A stretch of DNA of 64,000 nucleotides from NCBI GenBank assembly GCA_021798745.1, contig JAJZBW010000001.1:1188-65187 (forward strand). The letters are read 5' to 3'. The notes below the pieces were generated by a model. That model had not been told where the DNA came from and made no database searches. It saw nothing but the letters and a program-made list of their open reading frames with translations. This stretch comes from Actinomycetes bacterium (lineage in GTDB: Bacteria > Actinomycetota > Acidimicrobiia > Acidimicrobiales > Bog-793). Numbering within the stretch: position 1 is the first letter of the stretch; each line of letters opens with the position of its first letter. The translations under genes and the position numbers were made by a program. Shown here piece by piece: positions 185-21,610 of the stretch.

Positions 185-1687
185 TCATGCGCCTTTCTCG
201 GTGAGGGCCGCGTACGCAGTGAGGTCGGGTGCTTCGATGGCGACGGAGCGGAGGTGCGGGTGGCCGTCCAGGCTGAACAGTCCGACGGGACGCTCGGCCC
301 GATGCGCGAGGACGAGCCCGATCGCGTCCGCTCCCGTTGCGCCGATCGAAAGCGCGACCTCGATGGCCGCGGTGAGCTCGGCGAGCGTCGCATGCTCCAT
401 GAAGCGGAGCACCTTGATGAACTCGCGCGTGCCGGACGACCCGAGATCGGCCTCGAGCCGCCGGCGCAACAGCGCGAAGCAGCTCGGCAGCTCCCATCCC
501 TCGAGGGGCCGGGCGAAGTCGAATGCACCGGGCTTTCGTTCGAGAAGCGCCAGGTAGTGGCGCGGGTCGTAGGTGATGTGCTCACGGCCCCACCATCGGG
601 GGTGGGTGGCGACGAGCTCTGGTCCGAGAGAGATCGCGACCTCCTCGATCCCGCCGGCGACCGTCACCTCGTGGTGCGCGTAGGCGGTCGGGACCGAGTA
701 GTCGTTCTGGTCGAAGCGGACGAGGCTGAGCGAGCTCGCCCTCCGGTGCTCGATCCGACGCGGCTCGAAGACGGCACCGGGCAGGGCGAGCATCGCGGCC
801 CGGTCGTCTTCCAGGCGCTCAGCCTTGGTCTGTGCGTTGCCGCGGGTCCTGCGTGAGAGGTCGGCGAGGCACCGCTCGGCGAGGTGGACGTTCAGCTCGG
901 AGAACGACGAGAAGGACGGGACCGGGACGAGGAAGTTCCTCCGTCCATACCCGACGAGGTTCTCGACGTGGCCCTTCTCGTTTCCTCGCGCCACCCGGCA
1001 GAAGCGGTGGGTGAACAGGTAGTGGCTTTCCAGGCGGAGGAACTCCCGCGTGAGGTTCCGCTCTCTTCCGACGATCTTCGACACCGCGATCGAGGTGTTG
1101 TCATACGCGGTCTTTCTGGGGACGCCGCCGCAAAAGGAGAACGCGGCGACATGGCCGGCCTGGAAGGTCTCGGTGCACTCTCTCGGATAGGCCGAGACCG
1201 AGAACGCGTCGGAGTGCGGAAGCGTCATCACCGCGAGCGCGGCCTTCACCCGGTCACCTCCGATCTCGACGGTCGCCTCGCCGAAGTCGAACTGGGCCTC
1301 GCCGGGCGGCTGTGAGAGCGGGACGAAGACTTCGGCACTGTGGCGCCGGTACTCGGCGACGTAACGACGGACCGTCACCTCGCTGCCCACATAGCCGTGC
1401 TCGTCGCGCAGCCGGTCGAAGATCCGCCGAGCGGTGTGGCGCTGCTTCCTTGGTGTCGTGGGATCGGCGTCGCCGATGAGGATCTCGTCGATGTTCGCGA
1501 TGAACGGGCCGAGCTTGGGCTGGGTCTGGTGGGATCGGGCCGAATAGCCCGGCGGCTCGGGGTGGGCAAGCATCTTCTCGAGCGTCCACCAGCCGACGCC
1601 GTAATCCCTACAGATCGCCCGCTTCGAGACGCCCTCGACGAGCACCTTTCGCCGGATCTCGTTCCACTGCTCCATGTCGGTATGCAC
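185..1687 (-). CDS. istA: IS21-family transposase IstA
   Basis: This is a 500-aa ORF. It has an N-terminal HTH (VSKRAICRDYGVGWWTLEKML), a DDE-type core and the canonical istA-istB gene order. Confidence 0.9.
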   Translation of the reverse strand: MHTDMEQWNEIRRKVLVEGVSKRAICRDYGVGWWTLEKMLAHPEPPGYSARSHQTQPKLGPFIANIDEILIGDADPTTPRKQRHTARRIFDRLRDEHGYVGSEVTVRRYVAEYRRHSAEVFVPLSQPPGEAQFDFGEATVEIGGDRVKAALAVMTLPHSDAFSVSAYPRECTETFQAGHVAAFSFCGGVPRKTAYDNTSIAVSKIVGRERNLTREFLRLESHYLFTHRFCRVARGNEKGHVENLVGYGRRNFLVPVPSFSSFSELNVHLAERCLADLSRRTRGNAQTKAERLEDDRAAMLALPGAVFEPRRIEHRRASSLSLVRFDQNDYSVPTAYAHHEVTVAGGIEEVAISLGPELVATHPRWWGREHITYDPRHYLALLERKPGAFDFARPLEGWELPSCFALLRRRLEADLGSSGTREFIKVLRFMEHATLAELTAAIEVALSIGATGADAIGLVLAHRAERPVGLFSLDGHPHLRSVAIEAPDLTAYAALTEKGA

Positions 1688-1964: not shown

Positions 1965-2567
1965 TCATCCTCCTGACCTGCCGCTGTCGGGGAGTCCCGC
2001 GGGGATGAGTTGCTGGCAGATCTGCTGGGCGTGCATGAACTTCGCCGACTGGGTGTCAATGCTGGAGGGGACGTCGAAGTGGACAGTTCCGCCGGAGAAG
2101 GTGGGGTCAGGGAAGTTGGGGAAGCCGTGTGAGCGCAAGCAGGAAGCGGCCTTGAGGTAGTCCTGCTGGTCTTGGGCGGTGATCGTCTCGGCAGGCTGTC
2201 CACTCAGCCCGCCGGCGGGCATCAGGTTGTTGCAGGCATTCTGGGCCGCCTTCGCCTGCGAGCTGCTTACCGCCTGGAGCGCGTTGATCAAAGCTTGCTT
2301 CGGGATCCCTCCGCTGCCATCGGGGTCGGGGAAGTTCGGGACGCCGTGGGAGCGCATGCAGGAGGCGTAGGCCAAGAGTCCCGTTCCTTGCGTCCCGTGG
2401 CTACTGCCACCGGTCGAGCCGGTGGCTGCGCCAGGCGTCGGCGACCCACCACCGCAGGCAGCAAAAGTGACGCCAACCGCGAGGATTCCGGCCGCCATCA
2501 ACGCGGCGCGGCCCACCCGGGTCCGTCGTATCGGCCTGGGGTGGGTGGGGGCATCCAGATCGCCCAT
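1965..2567 (-). CDS. Secreted lipoprotein with an internally duplicated C-x-RSHG-x-P-x-FPDP module, function unknown (copy 1)
   Basis: It has a signal peptide and lipobox (RRTRVGRAALMAAGILAVGVTFAAC). Two repeats (SCMRSHGVPNFPDP and SCLRSHGFPNFPDP) are each followed by a second Cys. The start at M55 of the ORF is uncertain; an alternative ATG lies at 2615. Confidence 0.75.
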   Translation of the reverse strand: MGDLDAPTHPRPIRRTRVGRAALMAAGILAVGVTFAACGGGSPTPGAATGSTGGSSHGTQGTGLLAYASCMRSHGVPNFPDPDGSGGIPKQALINALQAVSSSQAKAAQNACNNLMPAGGLSGQPAETITAQDQQDYLKAASCLRSHGFPNFPDPTFSGGTVHFDVPSSIDTQSAKFMHAQQICQQLIPAGLPDSGRSGG

Positions 2568-2713
2568 CGACGGATCGGCCGGATGGTCGTGGCGAGTGCG
2601 AATCAGGGGAAGCATGTCGGCCAGTGTGTGCGGCCGGGGCGGCGTGACATATCGGCCACCGGAGCGGTTTGTAGACCCCTCGTTGGAGGGACTGCGACTC
2701 CCTCTTTGGAGGG

Positions 2714-4264
2714 ATGTCGTGGCAGCCAACCGGAGGTAGCGTCCGAAGCGTGTTGGAGCAGGTCGGACGCAGACTGTGGGGCATCTTCCGTCGGTTGATC
2801 GCGTCCTATGTCCTGGTCACGGTCGTGGTCGTGGTGCTGGTCGAGGCCTTCGTGCTCGGCTACCAGGTGCCCCGAATGGTGAGCGACACCCAGCTACACA
2901 CCCAGGTCCAGGAAACCGCGGCAAGCTACTGGGGCCAGCTCGTCCAGCGTTACCCCAGCGGCGTGCCGACCGGGGCCCTGCTCGGCGAGACCGGTCAGCG
3001 CCCGGAACCGGGCACCGCCCAGACGGCACCCGACGCCAGCACGCTCATCGTCCCGGCTGTCGCCGGCACGGTCAACAGCGACAAGGCGTTGACCGCGGTC
3101 GTAGCAATCGGGCAAGACGGCACGATCGTCGCTTCGTCGGCCCCGTCTCGCTACCCGCCCGGGCAACCTGCGGCAAGGTATCTGCCCGGCGGCGCCTCGG
3201 CGGCGATCCACGCCGGGCTCCTCAAGGGCGTTGGCGGCGGCATCGGATCGACTCCCTACGGCAGCGTCGCATGGACGCTGTACGGAGGGCGGAACCCTGT
3301 CAAATCTTCAGCCAGCGGCCCGGGCGGGACCTACCTCTATGTCCAGGCCCCTCACTCGACCGGGCTCGTCAACCCGATCCGAGCCTGGGACGAATTGGGC
3401 CAAGTTTCCGGCAACAGCCTGCTGTCCACCATCCTCTACGTTCTGCTGCTCGTCATCGTCCCCGTCGGCGTGCTGTTCGGGGTGCTCGCCTCTCGCCGGG
3501 TGGTGCGCCGGGTCCGCCGCTTGGAGCGAGCAACGGTGGCGGTCGCCGATGGCGACTACACCGTCGCCCTGCCTACCTCCGGTCGGGACGAGGTGGGGCG
3601 GCTCGAAGCGAACGTCGCCACGATGGCCCACCAGCTCAACTCCGCCCTCGCTGCCGAGCGCGAACGCGTCACTAGCGAAGCGCGTGCTGCCGAGCGGTCC
3701 CGGATCGCCCGGGAGATCCACGACGCCATCTCCCAACACCTCTTCGGCCTGCGCATGATCGCCTCGGGGATGCGCCGGGCCGACCCGCAGAACGAGCAGG
3801 TCCAGGCCATCGAACGCATCACCGAGGAGGCACTGCGCGACATGCAGATGCTGCTGCTCGAACTACGCCCCGCCGGCCTCGACGGTGCCGGCCTCGGCCC
3901 TGCCTTGGAGCAGATCTGCGCGGCTTACCACGACCGCCTCGGCGTGACCGTCGACGCCGACCTCGCCGACATCACCCTCCCCGAACCGGTCGAGGACGCC
4001 CTGTTGCGTGTCACGCAGGAGGCATGCACCAACGCCATCCGCCACGGCAACGCCCACCGGCTCGCCGTGTCCATGACCCGCCAGAACGGGCAGGTCGAGC
4101 TGGCCGTACGCGACAACGGGACTGGCTTCGACCCAGCCGCCTTGCACACCGGCTCCGGGCTGCGACACATCCACGACCGGGTCACCGAGCTCGGCGGCAC
4201 GGTGGACATCGACAGCGCACCGGGAGCGGGCGCCGCGGTCACCGTGCGCGTGCCAGCACCATGA
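2714..4264 (+). CDS. Sensor histidine kinase, NarL/HisKA_3 type, with HAMP
   Basis: It has two TM segments and a HAMP-like linker (DEVGRLEANVATMAHQLN). The H-box is REIHDAISQHLFGL and a HATPase_c C-terminus is present (DNGTGF...GSGLRHI). Confidence 0.9.
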   Translation: MSWQPTGGSVRSVLEQVGRRLWGIFRRLIASYVLVTVVVVVLVEAFVLGYQVPRMVSDTQLHTQVQETAASYWGQLVQRYPSGVPTGALLGETGQRPEPGTAQTAPDASTLIVPAVAGTVNSDKALTAVVAIGQDGTIVASSAPSRYPPGQPAARYLPGGASAAIHAGLLKGVGGGIGSTPYGSVAWTLYGGRNPVKSSASGPGGTYLYVQAPHSTGLVNPIRAWDELGQVSGNSLLSTILYVLLLVIVPVGVLFGVLASRRVVRRVRRLERATVAVADGDYTVALPTSGRDEVGRLEANVATMAHQLNSALAAERERVTSEARAAERSRIAREIHDAISQHLFGLRMIASGMRRADPQNEQVQAIERITEEALRDMQMLLLELRPAGLDGAGLGPALEQICAAYHDRLGVTVDADLADITLPEPVEDALLRVTQEACTNAIRHGNAHRLAVSMTRQNGQVELAVRDNGTGFDPAALHTGSGLRHIHDRVTELGGTVDIDSAPGAGAAVTVRVPAP

Positions 4265-14320: not shown

Positions 14321-14610
14321 CCATCGCGGCGCCGGACGGGGAGTCCGCCCGGCGCATGGCGGACGATCTCCTCGCGGGCAGGCTCGCGGCGTCCGTCCAA
14401 CTGCTCCCGATCGAGAGCCACTACGTGTGGAAGGGCGAGGTCGTCCACCGGGAGGAGGTGCTCCTCCTCGTGACCACGCGGACGGCGCTCTACCCGGCCC
14501 TCGAGACCGCCGTCGCCGGGTCCCACGAGTACGAGGTCCCCGAGATCGTGCGCATCCCCGTCGCGGCGGGGCTCCCCGCGTACCTGGACTGGATATCGGC
14601 GGTCACCTGA
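14296..14610 (+). CDS. cutA: Divalent-cation tolerance protein CutA
   Basis: It begins MADEYSLVTIAAPDGESARRMADDLLAGRLAASVQLLPIESHYVWKGEV, which is typical of CutA1. A GAGGAG RBS lies upstream. Confidence 0.85.
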   Translation: MADEYSLVTIAAPDGESARRMADDLLAGRLAASVQLLPIESHYVWKGEVVHREEVLLLVTTRTALYPALETAVAGSHEYEVPEIVRIPVAAGLPAYLDWISAVT

Positions 14611-15307
14611 GGGGCGCCTGTGCCTGCGACTGGCCGAGCGGGCGGTCGTCCCGTGCGATCCGGTAGCCGACGTTCGCGACGGTCTCTACGACGGTCGGCT
14701 CCCCGAGCTTGCGCCTGAGGCGGCTGATCGTCACGAGGACCGCGTTCGTGAAGGGGTCGGCGTGCTCGTCCCAGACCTGCTCGAGCAGGTCCTCCGCGCT
14801 GAGCACCGACTCGCCCGCGTGGAGGAGCGCCTCGAGGACGGCGAACTCCTTGGCGGACAGCTCGACGACCCGGCCCGCGCGAGTGACGCGGTGGGCGACC
14901 GTGTCGAACTCGACGTCCGAGGAGCGGAGCACGCACGGGCGCACGCCGGGCTGCCGTCGCGCGAGCGCCCGGACGCGAAGGACGAGCTCGGGGAAGTGGA
15001 AGGGCTTCGCGAGGTAGTCGTCGGCCCCCGCACCGAGCCCGCTGACCCGGTCCTCGGGGGACCCCGAGGCGGTGAGCATGAGCACCATCGCGCGTCCCTC
15101 GGAACCGGTGATCGCCCGGCACAAGACGTCACCGTGGGTCCCCGGCAGGTCGCGGTCGAGCACGACGACGTCGTAGGAGCTGATCGCGAGCTTGCGTGCC
15201 GCCTCGTCACCGTCGCGCGCGACGTCGACGGCCATGGCCTGGTCCCGCAGGCCCTCCGCGACGACCTCGGCGAGCCGGGTCGAGTCCTCCACGACGAGCA
15301 CCCTCAC
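14603..15307 (-). CDS. Response regulator, OmpR/PhoB family
   Basis: It begins VRVLVVEDSTRLAEVV. A REC domain and a winged-helix output (LSAKEFAVLEALL...VANVGYRI) are present. The GTG start overlaps the kinase stop (GTGA). Confidence 0.9.
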   Translation of the reverse strand: MRVLVVEDSTRLAEVVAEGLRDQAMAVDVARDGDEAARKLAISSYDVVVLDRDLPGTHGDVLCRAITGSEGRAMVLMLTASGSPEDRVSGLGAGADDYLAKPFHFPELVLRVRALARRQPGVRPCVLRSSDVEFDTVAHRVTRAGRVVELSAKEFAVLEALLHAGESVLSAEDLLEQVWDEHADPFTNAVLVTISRLRRKLGEPTVVETVANVGYRIARDDRPLGQSQAQAPLR

Positions 15308-16629
15308 GGCCGCGCCGCCCCTCCGGTGCCCTCCGGGAGAGCGCGCGCGGGGCGCGCCGCGAGCGGGAGGTCGACCTCGACTCGCAGCCCGCCCTCCGCG
15401 ATCGCCGTGAGAGCGAGCGACCCGCCGTGCGCGTCGGCGACGGCCGCGACGATCGAGAGCCCGAGCCCGAACCCCCCGTCCGACCCCGTGCGCTCCGTCC
15501 CCGCCCTCCGGAACGGCTGGACGAGGTCGACGACGCCGTTCCCGTCGAGCACCTGGCCGGAGTTCTCGACCACGAGCACGGCGGTGGAGCCGCGGGTGCC
15601 CGTGCGCACGCGCACGAATCCGCCGGGCTCGTTGTGCCGAACCGCGTTGTCGAGGAGGTTCTCGACCAGCTGGGTGAGAAGCGTCGCGTTGCCCGAGACC
15701 CAGGCGTCCGCGCAACCGGGCGCGTCCACGGCGAGCCCGAGCCTCGTGACCGGGCGCTCACGACGCGCGATCGCGGACGCCACGAGCTGGTCGAGCGCGA
15801 GGGGGGTGTCGAGGCCGGCGGGCCCCCTCTCGGCCCGTGCGAGCACGAGGAGCCCCTCGAGCAGGCGGTCGACCCCGTCGAGCTCGACGCGGAACCGCTC
15901 GGCGAGGGTCGCGAGAGGAGGGGGGACCGGTCCGGGCTTCGCGACCGCGACGTCGAGAGCCGCCCGCATCGTCGCAAGCGGGGTGCGGAGCTCGTGGGAG
16001 GCGTTCGCGACGAAGAGGCGCTGGGCCTGGAACGACCTCTCGAGCCGTTCGAGCAGCCCGTCGAAGGTGTCGCCGAGCTGCTTCAGCTCGTCGTCGGGAC
16101 CGGCGAGCGCGAGGCGCTCGTGGAGGTTGCTCGCGGAGATGTCGCGCACGCTGTTCGTGATCGCGCGCAGTGGTCGCAGCACCCGCCCCGCCGAGACCCA
16201 CCCGAGCGCGGCTGCGAGGACGACCGTCAGCGCGAGCGCGATCCCCGAGTAGAGGAGCAGCTGGTGGAGGTCCGAGCTCTGTTGGCCTGCGGCAACGATC
16301 CGGAGCTGCTCGGTGACCTTCCGGAGGACCTCGACGGGCGGGACACGCGGCAGTCCTGCCCGAGCCGGCCCGCCGAGCGCCGGGCTGACGCCTCCCGGCG
16401 GCACGAGCCCGAGCGCGACCGCCCCGGCCGCGGTGATGTCGATGATCCGCGCCGGCACCCTTGCGGAGACGGCGACACGCGTGCTCGTCGCACGCCCCCA
16501 CAGCAGGGCCGTCAGGACGACCAGGGCGGCTACCGACCCGAGGAACAGCGCCCCGTAGGAGGTCGCGAGCCGAGCGCGGACCGTCCGTCGGGAGCCTTCG
16601 CGCCCGTGTGCCGCTCCCTTGCGTCCCAT
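15304..16629 (-). CDS. Sensor histidine kinase (HAMP-HisKA-HATPase_c)
   Basis: The H-box is FVANASHELRTPLATM. The N, G1 and G2 regions are present (LLDNAVRHN, GFGLGLSIV). It has two TM segments and HAMP. Confidence 0.9.
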   Translation of the reverse strand: MGRKGAAHGREGSRRTVRARLATSYGALFLGSVAALVVLTALLWGRATSTRVAVSARVPARIIDITAAGAVALGLVPPGGVSPALGGPARAGLPRVPPVEVLRKVTEQLRIVAAGQQSSDLHQLLLYSGIALALTVVLAAALGWVSAGRVLRPLRAITNSVRDISASNLHERLALAGPDDELKQLGDTFDGLLERLERSFQAQRLFVANASHELRTPLATMRAALDVAVAKPGPVPPPLATLAERFRVELDGVDRLLEGLLVLARAERGPAGLDTPLALDQLVASAIARRERPVTRLGLAVDAPGCADAWVSGNATLLTQLVENLLDNAVRHNEPGGFVRVRTGTRGSTAVLVVENSGQVLDGNGVVDLVQPFRRAGTERTGSDGGFGLGLSIVAAVADAHGGSLALTAIAEGGLRVEVDLPLAARPARALPEGTGGAARP

Positions 16630-16981: not shown

Positions 16982-18190
16982 TCAGATCGACCACAGGGCT
17001 TCCGTCGGCGAGAGGCGCGCGGCCCGGAGCGCCGGGAGGAGCCCCGCGACCGCGCCGATCACGAGCGCCGCTCCGAGCCCTCCGCCCCAGGCGAGAGGCG
17101 GGACGACGATCGTCCATCTCTTCGTCGAGGCGTACACGGCCGTCGAGACCGTGCCGAGGACCACCCCCGTCGCGCCGCCGAGGAGGGAGAGCAGGACCGC
17201 CTCCGCGAGGAACTGGGTCCGGATGTGGCTCTTCGTCGCGCCGAGCGCGCGCCGCAGCCCGATCTCCGAGCGCCGTTCGAGCACGGAGATCACCATGATG
17301 TTCGCGACACCGACGGCCCCGACGAGCAGAGCGACGCCTCCGAGCCCGAGGAACAGCCCGTTGAGAGCGGCCTGCGCGTCGGCTTCCGCGACGAGGGCGG
17401 ACGAGGGCTGGGACACGTTGACCTGGTTCGGAGCTTCCGGGTTCGCGGTCGCCCCGAGGACCGCGTCGACCGCGTCGACCTCGCTCGTCGCGGCGCGGAC
17501 GTAGATCTCGGACGGGTGCCCGTCGAACCCGAGGTAGGTCTCCGCGGCGGGGAACCCGACGAGCACGGAGCTGTCGATCTCCGGGGTGAGGGGCGCGGGG
17601 TTCAGGATCCCCGTTACGTAGAACCACATGTTCCCGAGCCAGATCCTCTCTCCCGGGAAGACCCGGTCTATTCCGAGCCGCTGCGCCGCGGCAGCGCCGA
17701 GGACCGCGACGGGCTCGGTCGCCGTCGCGGGGTTCAGGTAGCGCCCGGAGGCGAGGGACGTCCCGACGTCCGACGGGAGGGCGAGGCTCGAGGCGGCCAC
17801 GCTGAGGGCGTTCGTGTCGATGCTCGGCACGAGCGGGCTCCTGTAGACGTTCACGTTGCCCACCGCACCCGTGTACTGGACCTCGGTCACGGGCCCGATC
17901 CGGCCGATCATCCCGGGCGCGGCGACCGGGAGTTCCGCGGGCTGACCGAACAGGCTCTCGCCGTTCGTGACCGTGAGGAGGTTCGTCCCGAGCCGGTTGA
18001 TCTCGGCGAGAAGGCCCGCCTCCGACGAGGAGGAGAGACCGAGGACGGCGACGATCGCCGCGACCCCGATCGCGATCCCGAGAGCGGAGAGCCCGGCCCG
18101 GAGCTTGCGGGTCCGGAGCCCGACGACCGCGACCCTCCAGAGGTCGCCCGGAGCGAGGGCGCCCGCGGAGGGCGACGCCTTCCCCGTCAC
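16982..18190 (-). CDS. ABC transporter permease, FtsX/MacB type
   Basis: It has an N-terminal TM, a large extracytoplasmic domain and a C-terminal FtsX region (ERRSEIGLRRALGATKSHI). A GTGA overlap joins it to the ATPase. Confidence 0.9.
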   Translation of the reverse strand: MTGKASPSAGALAPGDLWRVAVVGLRTRKLRAGLSALGIAIGVAAIVAVLGLSSSSEAGLLAEINRLGTNLLTVTNGESLFGQPAELPVAAPGMIGRIGPVTEVQYTGAVGNVNVYRSPLVPSIDTNALSVAASSLALPSDVGTSLASGRYLNPATATEPVAVLGAAAAQRLGIDRVFPGERIWLGNMWFYVTGILNPAPLTPEIDSSVLVGFPAAETYLGFDGHPSEIYVRAATSEVDAVDAVLGATANPEAPNQVNVSQPSSALVAEADAQAALNGLFLGLGGVALLVGAVGVANIMVISVLERRSEIGLRRALGATKSHIRTQFLAEAVLLSLLGGATGVVLGTVSTAVYASTKRWTIVVPPLAWGGGLGAALVIGAVAGLLPALRAARLSPTEALWSI

Positions 18191-18978
18191 CCGGTCACCG
18201 CGTCCCCGCGGTCCCCGTCCGCTCCCCGGGGCGGGGCGGGCGCCCCGCGGACAGGACCTGCCGCGCCGGCGGGCGGACCTCCGGCCGAGGACCTGTCCTC
18301 GACGACCCTGCCGTCCAGGACCTGCACCTGGCGCGGCAGCCGGTCGGCGATGGCCCGCTCGTGGGTGATCACGACGATCGTCGCCCCGCCGTCGTGGAGC
18401 TCCTCGAGGAGCGAGAGGATCGCCTGGCTGTTCGCGCTGTCGAGGTTCCCGGTCGGCTCGTCGGCGAGCACGATCGCGGGCCTCCCGACGAGGGCGCGGG
18501 CGATGGCGACGCGCTGCCGCTCCCCGCCCGACAGCTGGGTCGGCCGCGCGGAGCCACGGTGGCCGAGCCCGACGCGCGTGAGCGCCGCGGCCGCGGCGTC
18601 CCGACGCTCCGCGAGCGCGACGCCCGCGTAGAGGAGCCCGTCGGCGACGTTGTCGAGGGCTCGCTCGTGCTCCGCGAGGAAGAACTGCTGGAACACGAAC
18701 CCGATCCGGGTCGCCCGGAGCGCCGAGAGCTCACGGTCCGACATGTCTGCGACGTCGAGCCCCGTCACGCGCACGGAGCCGGTCGTCGGCCTGTCGAGCG
18801 TCCCCATGAGGTGGAGGAGCGTCGTCTTCCCCGATCCCGACGGGCCCACTATCGCGACGAGCTCGCCCTCGCCGACGACGAAGCTCACGCCCCGGAGCGC
18901 CTCGACGGGCGGCTCGCTCGGATAGGTCTTGGTCACGGACTGGACCTCGAGGACGGGCGTCGCCACGGTCGCGCTCAC
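18187..18978 (-). CDS. ABC transporter ATP-binding protein (MacB/LolD-like)
   Basis: Walker A is GPSGSGKTT, the signature is LSGGERQRVAIARAL and Walker B is VLADEPT. A GTGA overlap joins it to the adaptor stop. Confidence 0.92.
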   Translation of the reverse strand: MSATVATPVLEVQSVTKTYPSEPPVEALRGVSFVVGEGELVAIVGPSGSGKTTLLHLMGTLDRPTTGSVRVTGLDVADMSDRELSALRATRIGFVFQQFFLAEHERALDNVADGLLYAGVALAERRDAAAAALTRVGLGHRGSARPTQLSGGERQRVAIARALVGRPAIVLADEPTGNLDSANSQAILSLLEELHDGGATIVVITHERAIADRLPRQVQVLDGRVVEDRSSAGGPPAGAAGPVRGAPAPPRGADGDRGDAVTG

Positions 18979-20966
18979 GTGCCTGGCGTCACGACGCGGT
19001 CCCCCGCGGCGATCCCCGAGCCGGAGACCTGCACGAGCCCGTCCGCGTCGTCGAACAGCCCGAGAGAGACCGCGGCGAGATGATGCACACCATGTGATAT
19101 GAGCTCGAGAGCGTACCCTCCGTCGGCGAGCGCGAGGAGCGCGTCGACGGGGACCACCAGGACGTCCGAGACCGTCGCGGTCGTGATCGAGACGTTCACG
19201 GGCGCCTGGTCGAGGCCCGCGGTCGCGCGCAGGTGCGTCGGGGCGACGAGCACCGTGATCGTCGGCGAGGAGCTCCCGCCCCCCGCGGAGCTGCTCGGCA
19301 CCGTCGCGACCGTCCCGACCGAGGTCACGGTCCCGGGCGTCGTCGAGTTGTCCGGGAGCGTGATCGTCACGGGGTCGCCGACCTTCACGTCGGACTGGAG
19401 GGACGCGTCGAGCCCGATCGTCACGACGAGCGACGTCGACGTCGCCGTCAGGATCGCGAGGCCGGGGGTGGCAGCGACCCCGTCGGCGGCCGACACGGAG
19501 GCGACGGCGATCGGCCCCGGCTCGACGACCACGTCTCCGAGCGCGACGATCCCGGTCGGCGGCGCGCCGGTGGACCGCTGCCACGCCTCGACCGCCGCCT
19601 TCGTCGAGGGGCCGAAGTGGCCGTTCGGGACCAGTCCCCGTCCGAACCCGAGAGCGACGAGGTTCCTCTGGAGCTGCGCGACGTCGGCGCCGTCTCCGAC
19701 TCCCTCGGAGAGAGCGCGGTACGGGGTGACGGACCCGTAGAGGAGCGGAACCTCTCGGCCGTCGAGCCCGTACACGGCGCCGCCGCGGCGGACGACCTGG
19801 CCGGCGGTCGGCAGGGCGGTCACGCGCGCCCCGGGGTTCACCGCCTGCTCGGCGTCCGCCGCGAACGTGCTCTGCGCCACGCGGAGGGCGCTCTCGTCCC
19901 CTGCGAGGGTCTGCGCGTCCTGCGCGACCGCCGCCCCCGACCCCGCACGGTCCGCGGCGACCGAGTCGCTCGCGACCGCCAGCGCCTCGGTGTCCGCTGC
20001 GACGACGACCGCCTCCGCCGTGCACGACGACGTCGGGATCTGGAACGTCTGGATCGCACCCGTCGCGGTCCCTCCCGCGTTCGTCGCGACGAGGGTGAAG
20101 TCGTACGTCGTTCCCGGGACGAGACCGGTCACGGTCGCGCCGACGGGCACCGATGTCGCGCCCGATCCCGCGCTCTCGACGGTCGTGCTGCCTCCGTACG
20201 CCGCGCTCACGCCGTACTCGAACCTGTAGCTTGTGTCCGACCCGTTCGGATCGACGCTGCCCGAGAGGGAGACGCTCTCCGACGCGCTCACCGCCGCGGA
20301 CCCCGTCGTGACCGTCGGACGCAGCGGGGTCGGCACGGTGCTCGCCCCCGGGACGACCCTCCGTACGTGCGCCGCGGCGCCCGCGGCGCCGGATCCCGCG
20401 TTCCCGGCGCCTGCCCCGGTCCCGGTCCCGGTCCCCGTCCCCGTCCCCGTCCCCGTCCCCGTGGCCGTCGTGACCGTCGCGGCGGAGGAGGACGGGCAGC
20501 CGAGCCGCTCGTCCGTCGCGAGCTGCGTGTTGGCCTGCGAGAGAGCCGTCGTGTCGGCGCTCTCGGCCGCGAGCGCTCCGAGAATCGTCGCGGCGTCCTG
20601 GGCTCGTCCTGTCGCCCGCGCGCGCCCGAGGGCGGCCGTGTCGGCAGCGACCTTCGCGCGGTCGGCCTGGAGCGCCGTCCGGTCCGCGGCCATCGTGGCG
20701 GCGGAGGTGCCCGTCGGGAGCGACACCGAGTAGCTCCCCTCGTATCCGAGGGTCGCGCTCACCTCCGTCTCGGAGGAGAGGTTCTGTCGCGTGACGGTCG
20801 CCGTCGACGTCGGGTACGCGTTGTCGAGGGCGCTCCCCGGTGCTCCCGTCGAGGCGAACGGGTCGGTCGCGGCGAGCGCGGCCCCCGCTGCGGCGACGAC
20901 GGCCACGCCCGCCGCGGCGAGGCGTCGACGGCGCGTGCCGAGCAGGCGCGCCGCGTGCGGGCTCAC
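18975..20966 (-). CDS. Membrane-anchored periplasmic-adaptor-like protein (HlyD/MacA-like) with a peptidoglycan-binding domain and an inserted FN3-like domain
   Basis: It starts VSPHAARLLGTRRRRLAAAGVAVVAAAG (TM anchor). Ala-rich coiled-coil arms flank a (TG)n linker and an FN3-like segment (VDPNGSDTSYRFEYGVSAAYGG...GTTYDF). The PG_binding_1 motif is GADVAQLQRNLVALGF...GPSTKAAVEAWQ. A C-terminal beta-barrel region follows. Confidence 0.8.
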   Translation of the reverse strand: MSPHAARLLGTRRRRLAAAGVAVVAAAGAALAATDPFASTGAPGSALDNAYPTSTATVTRQNLSSETEVSATLGYEGSYSVSLPTGTSAATMAADRTALQADRAKVAADTAALGRARATGRAQDAATILGALAAESADTTALSQANTQLATDERLGCPSSSAATVTTATGTGTGTGTGTGTGTGAGAGNAGSGAAGAAAHVRRVVPGASTVPTPLRPTVTTGSAAVSASESVSLSGSVDPNGSDTSYRFEYGVSAAYGGSTTVESAGSGATSVPVGATVTGLVPGTTYDFTLVATNAGGTATGAIQTFQIPTSSCTAEAVVVAADTEALAVASDSVAADRAGSGAAVAQDAQTLAGDESALRVAQSTFAADAEQAVNPGARVTALPTAGQVVRRGGAVYGLDGREVPLLYGSVTPYRALSEGVGDGADVAQLQRNLVALGFGRGLVPNGHFGPSTKAAVEAWQRSTGAPPTGIVALGDVVVEPGPIAVASVSAADGVAATPGLAILTATSTSLVVTIGLDASLQSDVKVGDPVTITLPDNSTTPGTVTSVGTVATVPSSSAGGGSSSPTITVLVAPTHLRATAGLDQAPVNVSITTATVSDVLVVPVDALLALADGGYALELISHGVHHLAAVSLGLFDDADGLVQVSGSGIAAGDRVVTPGT
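20412..20464. repeat. Hexanucleotide tandem repeats (CCGGTC/CCCGTC units) encoding TGTGTGTGTGTGTGAGAG within the adaptor gene
   Basis: Read directly from the sequence. About 8 in-frame 6-nt units are present. Confidence 0.8.
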
Positions 20967-21610
20967 CCCCCGCCCTCGGCCTGCTTCGAGTAGGGGAGAC
21001 CCGCGGGGATGAGCGCCTCGCAGATCTGGCGCGCCCGGAGGAACGACGTCGAGCTCGGGCTCATCCCCGTCGGGATCGGGAAGCTCACCTGGCCGCCGTT
21101 GAAGACCGGGTCGGGGAAGCCGACGATCCCGTGGGACCGCATGCACGCCGCCGCCTTCAAGTAGTCCGCCTGCTGCGCCGGCGTGATGGTCGCGGCGTGC
21201 GCGCCGCCGCCCGCAGGGAGGTACTTGCGGCACTCGCCCTGCGCGGACACGAAGGACTTCGAGCCGGGGTCGACGCCGCTGCCCGGAGCGATCTTGATCC
21301 CGACGCCCTTCCCGTTGCTCGAGATCGTGGGCTGCGGGAAGCCGGGCACCCCGTGCGAGCGCATGCAGGCGGCGAACCTGAGCACGTCTGAGTAGACGGC
21401 GCCCGGGCTCCCCGCGGGCGCGGGAGCCCCGCTCGGTGCGGGAGCGGTCGTCGAGGTCGTCGTGGAGCCGAGGCTCGCGACGCCGGCGGACGGGCTGCCC
21501 CCGCACGCGGCCGCGAAGGCGACGACGCCCGTCAGGGCCGCCCCGACCGCGAGACGCCGCGCCGCGCTCCGGGGAGGCCGCTCCTTTCCTGCATGCTCAG
21601 TGACCGTCAC
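20963..21610 (-). CDS. Secreted lipoprotein with duplicated C-x-RSHG-x-x-FP-x-P module (copy 2; paralog of 1965..2567)
   Basis: It has a lipobox (LTGVVAFAAAC) and repeats ACMRSHGVPGFPQP and ACMRSHGIVGFPDP, each followed by a second Cys. The GTG start at 21610 is tentative. The stop overlaps the adaptor start (GTGA). Confidence 0.75.
   Translation of the reverse strand: MTVTEHAGKERPPRSAARRLAVGAALTGVVAFAAACGGSPSAGVASLGSTTTSTTAPAPSGAPAPAGSPGAVYSDVLRFAACMRSHGVPGFPQPTISSNGKGVGIKIAPGSGVDPGSKSFVSAQGECRKYLPAGGGAHAATITPAQQADYLKAAACMRSHGIVGFPDPVFNGGQVSFPIPTGMSPSSTSFLRARQICEALIPAGLPYSKQAEGGG

Follow-up and report, generated by a model that had tools for sequence, protein, structure and literature searches.

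In Gram-negative bacteria the tip of the adaptor hairpin is the contact with TolC, as in MacA, whose hairpin tip docks on TolC, and the question raised by the locus described here is what occupies that tip in an actinobacterial adaptor, and to what end. The gene in question (18975..20966, minus strand) lies in the window, that is, the whole stretch of 64,000 nucleotides that was analysed (positions 1,188 to 65,187 of contig JAJZBW010000001.1, assembly GCA_021798745.1, from an uncultured lineage of Acidimicrobiales), and encodes a protein of 663 residues. The original prediction held that this protein is a membrane-fusion adaptor in which the hairpin tip is replaced by a domain resembling fibronectin type III (FN3). 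The adaptor, the FN3 fold and its position at the tip are all borne out by the present analysis; the idea of a replacement is not, as the hairpin is intact and the FN3 domain, together with a low-complexity tether, is inserted in a tip loop bracketed by cysteines. The same design recurs in relatives and appears in two actinobacterial adaptor families, as is set out below.

Fold and domain order of the adaptor

The domain order was read from an AlphaFold2 monomer model built from 94 family members, with a mean predicted local distance difference test score (pLDDT) of 85.7. Strand boundaries were drawn by DSSP, and strands of at least three residues were counted. From the N- to the C-terminus, the gene encodes the following parts:

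20868..20933, minus strand: Arg-rich stretch, then hydrophobic membrane anchor, about residues 12-33 (sequence RRRRLAAAGVAVVAAAGAALAA; modelled helix 18-32, low pLDDT)
20703..20819, minus strand: N-terminal β strands, residues 50-88 (strands 53-57, 59-75 and 78-82; pLDDT >90)
20505..20702, minus strand: ascending hairpin helix (arm 1), residues 89-154, one 66-residue helix (block pLDDT 87-97)
20496..20498, minus strand: Cys157, the first tip-bracket cysteine, motif LGC-P-x-S-S, a conserved column
20319..20495, minus strand: low-complexity tether, residues 158-216, rich in Thr, Gly, Ala and Ser (pLDDT <50 at 170-212)
20415..20462, given as read on the plus strand: hexanucleotide microsatellite (CCCCGT)x8 (Tandem Repeats Finder: period 6, 8.0 copies, 97% matches)
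20040..20318, minus strand: FN3 domain, residues 217-309 (from the model, a segment profile, Foldseek and Pfam fn3)
20022..20024, minus strand: Cys315, the second tip-bracket cysteine, motif S-S-C, a conserved column, 5 residues beyond the FN3 domain
19848..20027, minus strand: descending hairpin helix (arm 2), 60 residues, 314-373 (helices 314-342 and 345-373, kink at 343-344)
19707..19847, minus strand: second lipoyl/barrel-sandwich half, residues 374-420 (strands 381-384, 397-401 and 404-410)
19533..19706, minus strand: PG_binding_1 domain, residues 421-478 (Pfam PF01471; helices 427-438 and 453-465)
18978..19532, minus strand: β-barrel and membrane-proximal domains, residues 479-663 (β-rich to residue 661, pLDDT about 95)

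The sequence landmarks of the original prediction are all present, with ADRTALQ at residue 94 and QANTQLATDE at residue 144 of the first arm, a (TG)n/Gly-Ala linker from residue 169, the FN3 signature in SGSVDPNGSD (residue 235, nucleotide 20264) and TNAGGTATG (residue 295), and AEAVVVAAD at residue 317 for the start of the second arm. The stretch first marked as FN3-like, 20035..20290, equals residues 226-311 and falls within the modelled FN3 domain and the short junction that follows it.

In the model, the lipoyl domain is split by an α-helical hairpin and followed by β-barrel and membrane-proximal domains, which is the canonical topology of adaptors, here carrying two modelled insertions: the FN3 domain between the hairpin helices and a PG_binding_1 domain between the second lipoyl half and the β-barrel. 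On the pattern of other adaptors, residues 50-88 are taken to be the first lipoyl/barrel-sandwich half and the edge of the β-barrel. The second lipoyl half is the most conserved stretch of the family in the alignment, including G389, L408, G411 and R417. Compared with the Protein Data Bank (PDB) by Foldseek, the model returned 43 best matches, all of them membrane-fusion or periplasmic adaptors, with BesA of Borrelia burgdorferi in first place (E = 1.6e-10), followed by MexA, ZneB, CusB, MacA, AcrA and EmrA. BesA is hairpin-less, as are the 366-412-residue members of the present family, and outside the hairpin it is the structure that fits the model best (4kkt, TM-score 0.51 on the target); unlike BesA, which serves a resistance-nodulation-division pump of a diderm, the window protein carries a long hairpin and an FN3 domain.

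The hidden Markov model scans that had been proposed as a check gave a divided answer. PG_binding_1 is the only Pfam domain to pass on the window protein, fn3 stays below threshold, and the HlyD-family models of Pfam and NCBIfam do not match it; NCBIfam gave weak SleB and PG-binding matches only, and a PDB sequence search with the window protein matched no adaptor. Since the direct family scans failed, identification of the adaptor needed the fold comparison and the homologues. A hairpin-less homologue, P0047, is 53% identical to the window protein over the C-terminal 42% of the query and passes Pfam HlyD_3 (29.3 bits against a cut-off of 22.2), and residues 479-663 correspond by sequence position to the part of P0047 that passes. 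HlyD_3 is thus detected in the homologue, and the miss in the window protein is therefore a matter of divergence, not of a different fold. Relatives are annotated at source as “peptidoglycan-binding protein” or “HlyD family efflux transporter periplasmic adaptor subunit”. The N-terminal membrane anchor and the linkage to transporter genes, joined to the adaptor gene by GTGA overlaps, agree with what is expected of an adaptor. The modelled fold is unambiguous, and on this basis the window protein is a membrane-anchored membrane-fusion/periplasmic adaptor.

The PG_binding_1 insertion is clear from sequence (E = 5e-12, 46.2 bits against a cut-off of 23, residues 426-474 in Pfam), with a weak PDB match to the peptidoglycan-binding repeat of a Streptomyces muramoyl-pentapeptide carboxypeptidase (1lbu). 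It is found in most family members, the hairpin-less ones included, and no description of such an insertion was found in the reviews of adaptors consulted.

For the FN3 domain, the sequence signal of the window protein alone is marginal: Pfam fn3 (PF00041) gives E = 3.8e-4 and 21.1 bits, under the curated cut-off of 25 bits, and the best PDB sequence match is a designed protein, FN3con (E = 1.3e-3). A PF00041 match is precomputed for many orthologues. The assignment of residues 217-309 to an FN3 domain, as originally proposed, is nonetheless firm because three independent tests concur. A profile of 20 homologous segments matched only FN3-containing proteins among 177,635 PDB sequences, namely titin (2.8e-27), PTPRD and other receptor tyrosine phosphatases, contactins and fibronectin, and matched FN3con at 1.1e-5 over profile positions 8-84. 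AlphaFold2 models residues 218-309 as a β-sandwich of seven strands (218-228, 231-239, 245-252, 264-267, 273-280, 287-296 and 299-302, with a short one at 306-309) at a block pLDDT of 87-96. Finally, Foldseek matched this part of the model to FN3 structures, with the FN3 of Ihog (2ic2, E = 1.2e-4) and the RsgI4 sensor (7cg5, 1.4e-4) among them. The subtype is a very common one and abounds in large secreted multi-repeat proteins, a single one of which gave up to 40 matched stretches, and the full-protein search of 1.84 billion representatives was dominated by such large multi-FN3 proteins; as a rough impression from that search, full-length resemblance to the query is confined to few 50%-identity clusters.

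The tip loop in the family and beyond

The model places the FN3 domain (218-309) between the two hairpin helices (89-154 and 314-373), and the homologues place it at the tip. Family members of 366-412 residues are hairpin-less, their lipoyl halves being joined by about six residues; those of about 490-560 residues have both helices and a short closing loop (...C-A-G-S-G-A-S...S-A-C...); members of 588-690 residues carry one FN3 domain in the tip loop, and those of 750-805 residues carry two. Because the FN3-less hairpin homologues close the same helices by a short Cys...Cys loop at the insertion site, the FN3 domain of the window protein is located in the tip loop, and the predicted hairpin-tip position stands.

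C157 and C315 are the only cysteines of the window protein, and they flank this loop. The aligned pair is kept in every hairpin-bearing homologue but P0087, and the hairpin-less homologues nearly all lack cysteine altogether, none of them having one at the aligned columns. Given this conservation in an extracytoplasmic actinobacterial protein, a C157-C315 disulphide is likely to clamp the tip.

The geometry of the insertion was compared in 80 proteins with a cysteine on each side of the FN3 array, a few of which are non-adaptors. The junction from the last FN3 domain to the second cysteine is 5 residues long in 63 of the 80 (consensus TFQxxxSSC). On the other side, the tether from the first cysteine to the first FN3 domain is of low complexity and spans 21-240 residues (59 in the window protein), and the shortest length observed rises with the number of FN3 domains:

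1 FN3 domain: shortest tether 21 residues
2 FN3 domains: shortest tether about 48 residues
4 FN3 domains: shortest tether 79 residues
5-6 FN3 domains: shortest tether 117-144 residues

An FN3 domain has its N-terminus at one pole and its C-terminus at the other. Together with the fixed junction and the growing tether, this is the pattern expected of an FN3 rod that stands end-on upon the descending helix, directed away from the membrane, with the tether returning along it to the ascending helix. The longest tether, of 240 residues, is Ser/Pro/Gly-rich and lies ahead of a single FN3 domain (L011, residues 134-373 of the open reading frame, ORF). In the window, the (Thr-Gly)n part of the tether falls on the (CCCCGT)x8 microsatellite; since the period of this repeat equals two codons, the length of the tether could change by slippage without a frameshift.

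Identity of the window protein to ten orthologues, taken domain by domain, separates the FN3 domain from its surroundings. The barrel region is 62-68% identical, and the lipoyl half and PG_binding_1 are 40-66% identical; FN3 identity is 47-61% in nine of the ten comparisons and 40% in the tenth; the hairpin helices are at 29-46% and the tether at 24-36%. As its identity is near that of the core domains and above that of the arms and the tether, the FN3 domain evolves as a folded and constrained part of the protein.

It had been asked whether an FN3 insertion at the hairpin tip recurs among actinobacterial adaptors, and it does so in two families. A scan of one genome per GTDB species yielded 548 relatives, and the statements on loci made here and below cover the best 80 of the 548. 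Twelve FN3-bearing loci (L003-L014, with 1-2 FN3 domains) come from Acidimicrobiales/Acidimicrobiaceae, save one labelled only Actinomycetota, and the plain-hairpin forms come mostly from Solirubrobacterales or Gaiellales, with one from Nocardioides. The close relatives of the window protein are all from metagenome-assembled genomes of Acidimicrobiales/Acidimicrobiaceae, the best being 55-59% identical, and its exact sequence has no match in a collection of 15 billion proteins. All named sources of FN3-tip adaptors are Actinomycetota. In two Acidimicrobiales loci, L016 and L026, the FN3 domain is absent and the hairpin is giant instead, each arm running to roughly 220-270 residues and the tip being closed by the same Cys...Cys loop (about residues 140-600 of the ORF in L016 and 110-610 in L026); these hairpins are made of repeated helical units of about 30-40 residues (e.g., ...VASTKTHNAQS.QTAQSQLTAAQ.ALTTAEQG...).

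The second family consists of YknX-type adaptors with Biotin_lipoyl_2 and HlyD_D23/HlyD_3 domains. In 45 YknX-type clusters, the same site, where the N-terminal half meets the C-terminal one, holds 1-6 FN3 domains, and the LxCPxxS...SSC bracket is found in most of these clusters. One member with five FN3 domains, P0081, matches the Pfam YknX-type barrel and C-terminal models, and downstream of its gene lie genes with ABC_tran and MacB_PCD/FtsX domains. In a BLASTP alignment, the window protein matches the YknX-type P0112 over residues 138-398 at 38-41% identity and no further, covering the end of arm 1, the FN3 domain, arm 2 and part of the second lipoyl half. Because this alignment runs through both hairpin and FN3 domain, the two adaptor families have the hairpin-plus-FN3 cassette in common, by descent or by exchange.

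Possible roles of the tip domain

The window operon resembles MacAB-like pumps of monoderms that work without an outer-membrane partner. Like Spr0693-Spr0694-Spr0695 of Streptococcus pneumoniae and YknX-YknYZ of Bacillus, it combines an anchored adaptor, made up of hairpin, lipoyl, β-barrel and membrane-proximal domains, with a separate ATP-binding cassette (ABC) ATPase and a four-helix MacB/FtsX-type permease. The FN3 domain, the Cys-bracketed tip loop and PG_binding_1, none of which is described for Spr0693 or YknX, set the window protein apart from these adaptors, and it is too dissimilar to them in sequence for direct detection. It shares with MacA-MacB-TolC of Escherichia coli the adaptor fold (5nik, 9qgy, 3fpp and 4dk0 are among the Foldseek matches), the MacB_PCD/FtsX permease and the ABC ATPase; unlike MacA, its tip bears a tethered FN3 domain, there is an additional PG_binding_1 domain, the ATPase and permease are split, and the operon has no TolC-like gene. 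A Pfam scan of five proteins (adaptor, ATPase, permease, kinase and regulator) found no outer-membrane-factor domain in them, and to our knowledge a TolC-like partner would not be expected, given the Acidimicrobiales affiliation. Extended hairpins such as those of L016 and L026 have their likeness in EmrA/HlyD-type adaptors, EmrA being among the fold matches of the window protein; in the EmrA/HlyD type, length comes from added coiled coil only, and the tip meets an outer-membrane channel. Hairpin length differs among these adaptors and apparently sets their reach (PMC4446572). Spr0693 forms a hexameric tube, stimulates a MacB-like transporter and has a disordered hairpin turn, and its assembly has been modelled as a duct of about 154 Å reaching the peptidoglycan (PMC5768738).

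By analogy with these systems, the favoured reading, to which we would give close to an even chance, is that the adaptor forms an exit duct spanning the wall, with a distal reach tuned in modules and a crown of FN3 domains that holds the mouth in or through the peptidoglycan. The hairpin arms, at about 60-66 residues, would measure roughly 9-10 nm; standing end-on upon the descending helix, the FN3 domain would lengthen the hairpin along its axis by about 4 nm, and the tether would return alongside it to the ascending helix. Should the adaptor assemble into a hexameric tube, as MacA and Spr0693 do, the distal crown would consist of six FN3 domains and would carry the exit duct into or through the peptidoglycan, with compounds released far from the membrane; lower down, PG_binding_1 would fasten the adaptor to the wall. 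Reach would then be the tuned property, set by the absence of a hairpin, a plain hairpin, 1-2 FN3 domains, up to six of them, or arms of about 220-270 residues. At about 1.5 Å per helix residue, and with the lipoyl, barrel and membrane-proximal layers counted in, the window protein is estimated to be about 17-18 nm high. One FN3 domain would be worth about 4 nm more, six of them over 20 nm, and a giant hairpin some 30 nm or more. The two-component system conserved beside the operon suggests that the pump may belong to an inducible response to an envelope-acting compound. That the MacB-type adaptors of Actinomycetota are length-adjustable conduits across the wall, by hairpins of 0 to about 220-270 residues per arm or by 1-6 FN3 domains set end-on upon a disulphide-clamped tip, is a wider claim, possible but doubtful.

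Several points weigh against the wall-spanning duct. PG_binding_1 lies near the membrane-proximal half of the adaptor, and a distal spacer would be less necessary if the wall starts there. FN3 is a generic binding module, for which a specific ligand is equally plausible. Acidimicrobiales organisms are Gram-positive, and taxonomy is the ground on which this uncultured lineage is assumed to be monoderm. Furthermore, a YknX-type subclade with 3-4 FN3 domains lacks the flanking cysteines (P0113, P0135, P0144, P0146 and P0148-P0158, with LGFPAST instead of LGCPAST), and to judge from these members, the presumed disulphide clamp is thus inessential to the design and dispensable in some lineages.

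All of the rival explanations rank below the exit duct. The one that survives best, though we consider it unlikely, takes the FN3 domain for a specific binding module, there to capture some partner at the adaptor's distal mouth, such as a glycopolymer of the wall, a secreted enzyme, the exported substrate or the co-encoded Cys-rich lipoprotein. Conservation of the FN3 domain as strong as that of core-like domains would suit such a role, as would the occurrence of the same subtype in big secreted repeat proteins, typical of surface-binding arrays, and the lipoprotein gene that is coupled to the adaptor gene and has a homologue near the adaptor in most of the loci. The presence of 1-6 FN3 copies at one site and of longer coiled coils elsewhere fits a length function better, however, and no binding-site signature was identified in the domain.

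MacB-type permeases include mechanotransmitters that do not transport, such as FtsEX with its coiled-coil partners, and with EnvC, PcsB or RipC, FtsEX joins a MacB-type ABC system to an extracytoplasmic coiled-coil protein acting at the peptidoglycan. A device of this MacB/FtsEX style might replace the pump altogether: ATP hydrolysis would move the adaptor to act on or sense the wall, PG_binding_1 and the FN3 domain would contact the wall, and the two-component system would belong to the same signalling circuit. The peptidoglycan-binding domain in the adaptor and the kinase/regulator pair beside the operon in most loci speak for such a device, and FtsEX-PcsB is mentioned in the Spr0693 study (PMC5768738). 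It is improbable all the same, as the window protein has the complete duct-forming adaptor fold and is not an EnvC/PcsB-like hydrolase activator; the FtsEX partner is a hydrolase or hydrolase activator with neither lipoyl nor β-barrel domains, and the Pfam scan of the same five proteins found no hydrolase domain.

Still less probable is that the FN3 domain is a tolerated passenger, shuffled from the abundant FN3 arrays of the genome into a permissive tip loop. The disordered hairpin turn of Spr0693 hints at such permissiveness, a microsatellite encodes part of the tether, which is hypervariable, and hairpin-less and FN3-less relatives adjoin homologues of the same transporter genes. A passenger would sit poorly with purifying selection on the FN3 domain comparable to that on the core, as the identity comparison has it, with a 5-residue junction that is nearly invariant, and with an arrangement kept in two adaptor families and many 90%-identity clusters. 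That the FN3 domains gate the duct, shutting the helical barrel at its distal mouth until substrate, or movement driven by ATP, pushes them aside, is the least probable of these explanations and very improbable: the long, flexible, one-sided tether would permit movement, and without an outer-membrane channel there is no other distal gate, but the rigid 5-residue junction to the descending helix restricts swinging, a plug is hard to picture with as many as six FN3 domains in a row, and known adaptors gate at the lipoyl-loop ring (PMC5768738).

The extra adaptor domains named in reviews are the N-terminal one of CusB and the C-terminal one of SilB, beside the hairpin-less BesA and the varied hairpin lengths, and both the retention of the hairpin and the presence of adaptors in Gram-positives are stated there to be unexplained (PMC4446572). 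The parts of the Chem Rev review seen (PMC8277102) make no mention of fibronectin or peptidoglycan-binding domains, and the open-access full text returned nothing relevant on an adaptor or membrane-fusion protein with fibronectin type III. The FN3-at-hairpin-tip design is thus recurrent and apparently undescribed; the sequences are already public under generic names, and what is new is the recognition of the architecture and its rules. At one site, nature offers a series of no hairpin, plain hairpin, 1-6 FN3 domains and giant hairpin beside closely related transporters (65-84% identity), and this series makes the role of Gram-positive hairpins testable. If the wider claim of length-adjustable conduits holds, the hairpins of Gram-positive adaptors would be a molecular ruler matched to envelope thickness, and the FN3 crown would substitute for the missing outer-membrane docking partner. 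A rule for protein engineering may also be contained in the arrangement, namely that a domain with opposite termini can be set into a helical hairpin through a rigid 5-residue junction and a return tether. The interest for specialists in efflux and the cell envelope is moderate, and higher if the length tuning is true.

The operon and its surroundings

The adaptor gene belongs to a row of minus-strand genes in a window of 72-75% G+C:

20963..21610, minus strand: small Cys-containing putative lipoprotein (probable GTG start at 21610; stop overlaps the adaptor start, GTGA)
18975..20966, minus strand: adaptor (membrane-fusion protein), 663 residues (GTG start at 20966; from translation, homologue alignment and fold matches)
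18187..18978, minus strand: ABC ATPase (Pfam ABC_tran, E = 6.8e-32; GTG start overlaps the adaptor stop, GTGA)
16982..18190, minus strand: MacB-type permease (Pfam MacB_PCD, 4.4e-17; FtsX, 2.3e-22; start overlaps the ATPase stop, GTGA)
15304..16629, minus strand: histidine kinase (Pfam HAMP, HisKA and HATPase_c), downstream of the permease
14603..15307, minus strand: OmpR-type response regulator (Pfam Response_reg and Trans_reg_C), downstream of the permease

From lipoprotein through adaptor and ABC ATPase to permease, each of the junctions is a GTGA overlap of start and stop, and the adaptor is translationally coupled to the ATPase and the MacB-type permease. With its MacB core and FtsX permease and its ABC ATPase, the operon encodes a MacB-type (type VII) ABC transporter, in which ATPase and permease are separate polypeptides. 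A longer ORF, 18975..21506, would extend the adaptor upstream of 20966; this extension was rejected as coding because it is Arg-rich like off-frame high-GC DNA, because it overlaps the conserved lipoprotein gene in a different frame, and because the starts of homologues align with the GTG at 20966. A search of the window found no second adaptor and no further FN3 domain of the adaptor's type.

Conservation is much stronger in the transporter than in the adaptor (about 50%). Homologues of the window-type ATPase (65-81% identical) and permease (68-84%) lie downstream of almost every adaptor whose locus is long enough to show them, and all the adaptors whose neighbourhoods were examined adjoin MacB-type transporters. 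Given the better-conserved transporter, this is consistent with the notion that the adaptor is the part that adapts to the envelope. In most of the loci, a kinase/regulator pair is found no more than 5 kb from the adaptor. At plain-hairpin loci (L015, L017-L024 and many others from Solirubrobacterales and Gaiellales), the permease match begins about 1-2.5 kb past the ATPase match, which suggests a longer permease or an intervening extra gene.

The lipoprotein has a lipobox-like AFAAAC|GG and an internally duplicated motif, (Y/A)xxCMRSHG(V/I)xxFP(D/Q)P...C, and belongs to no recognised family among those looked at. In L001, two lipoprotein genes stand in tandem immediately upstream of the adaptor gene, and the window lipoprotein is homologous to both of these small genes (tblastn 2e-29; L001 4777-5996). 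It could be an accessory subunit of the pump. A paralogue of the lipoprotein is encoded elsewhere in the window (1965-2729, minus strand), and its gene adjoins an ORF of 500 residues with a helix-turn-helix-like N-terminus (185-1687, minus strand), a putative transposase of the IS21 type.

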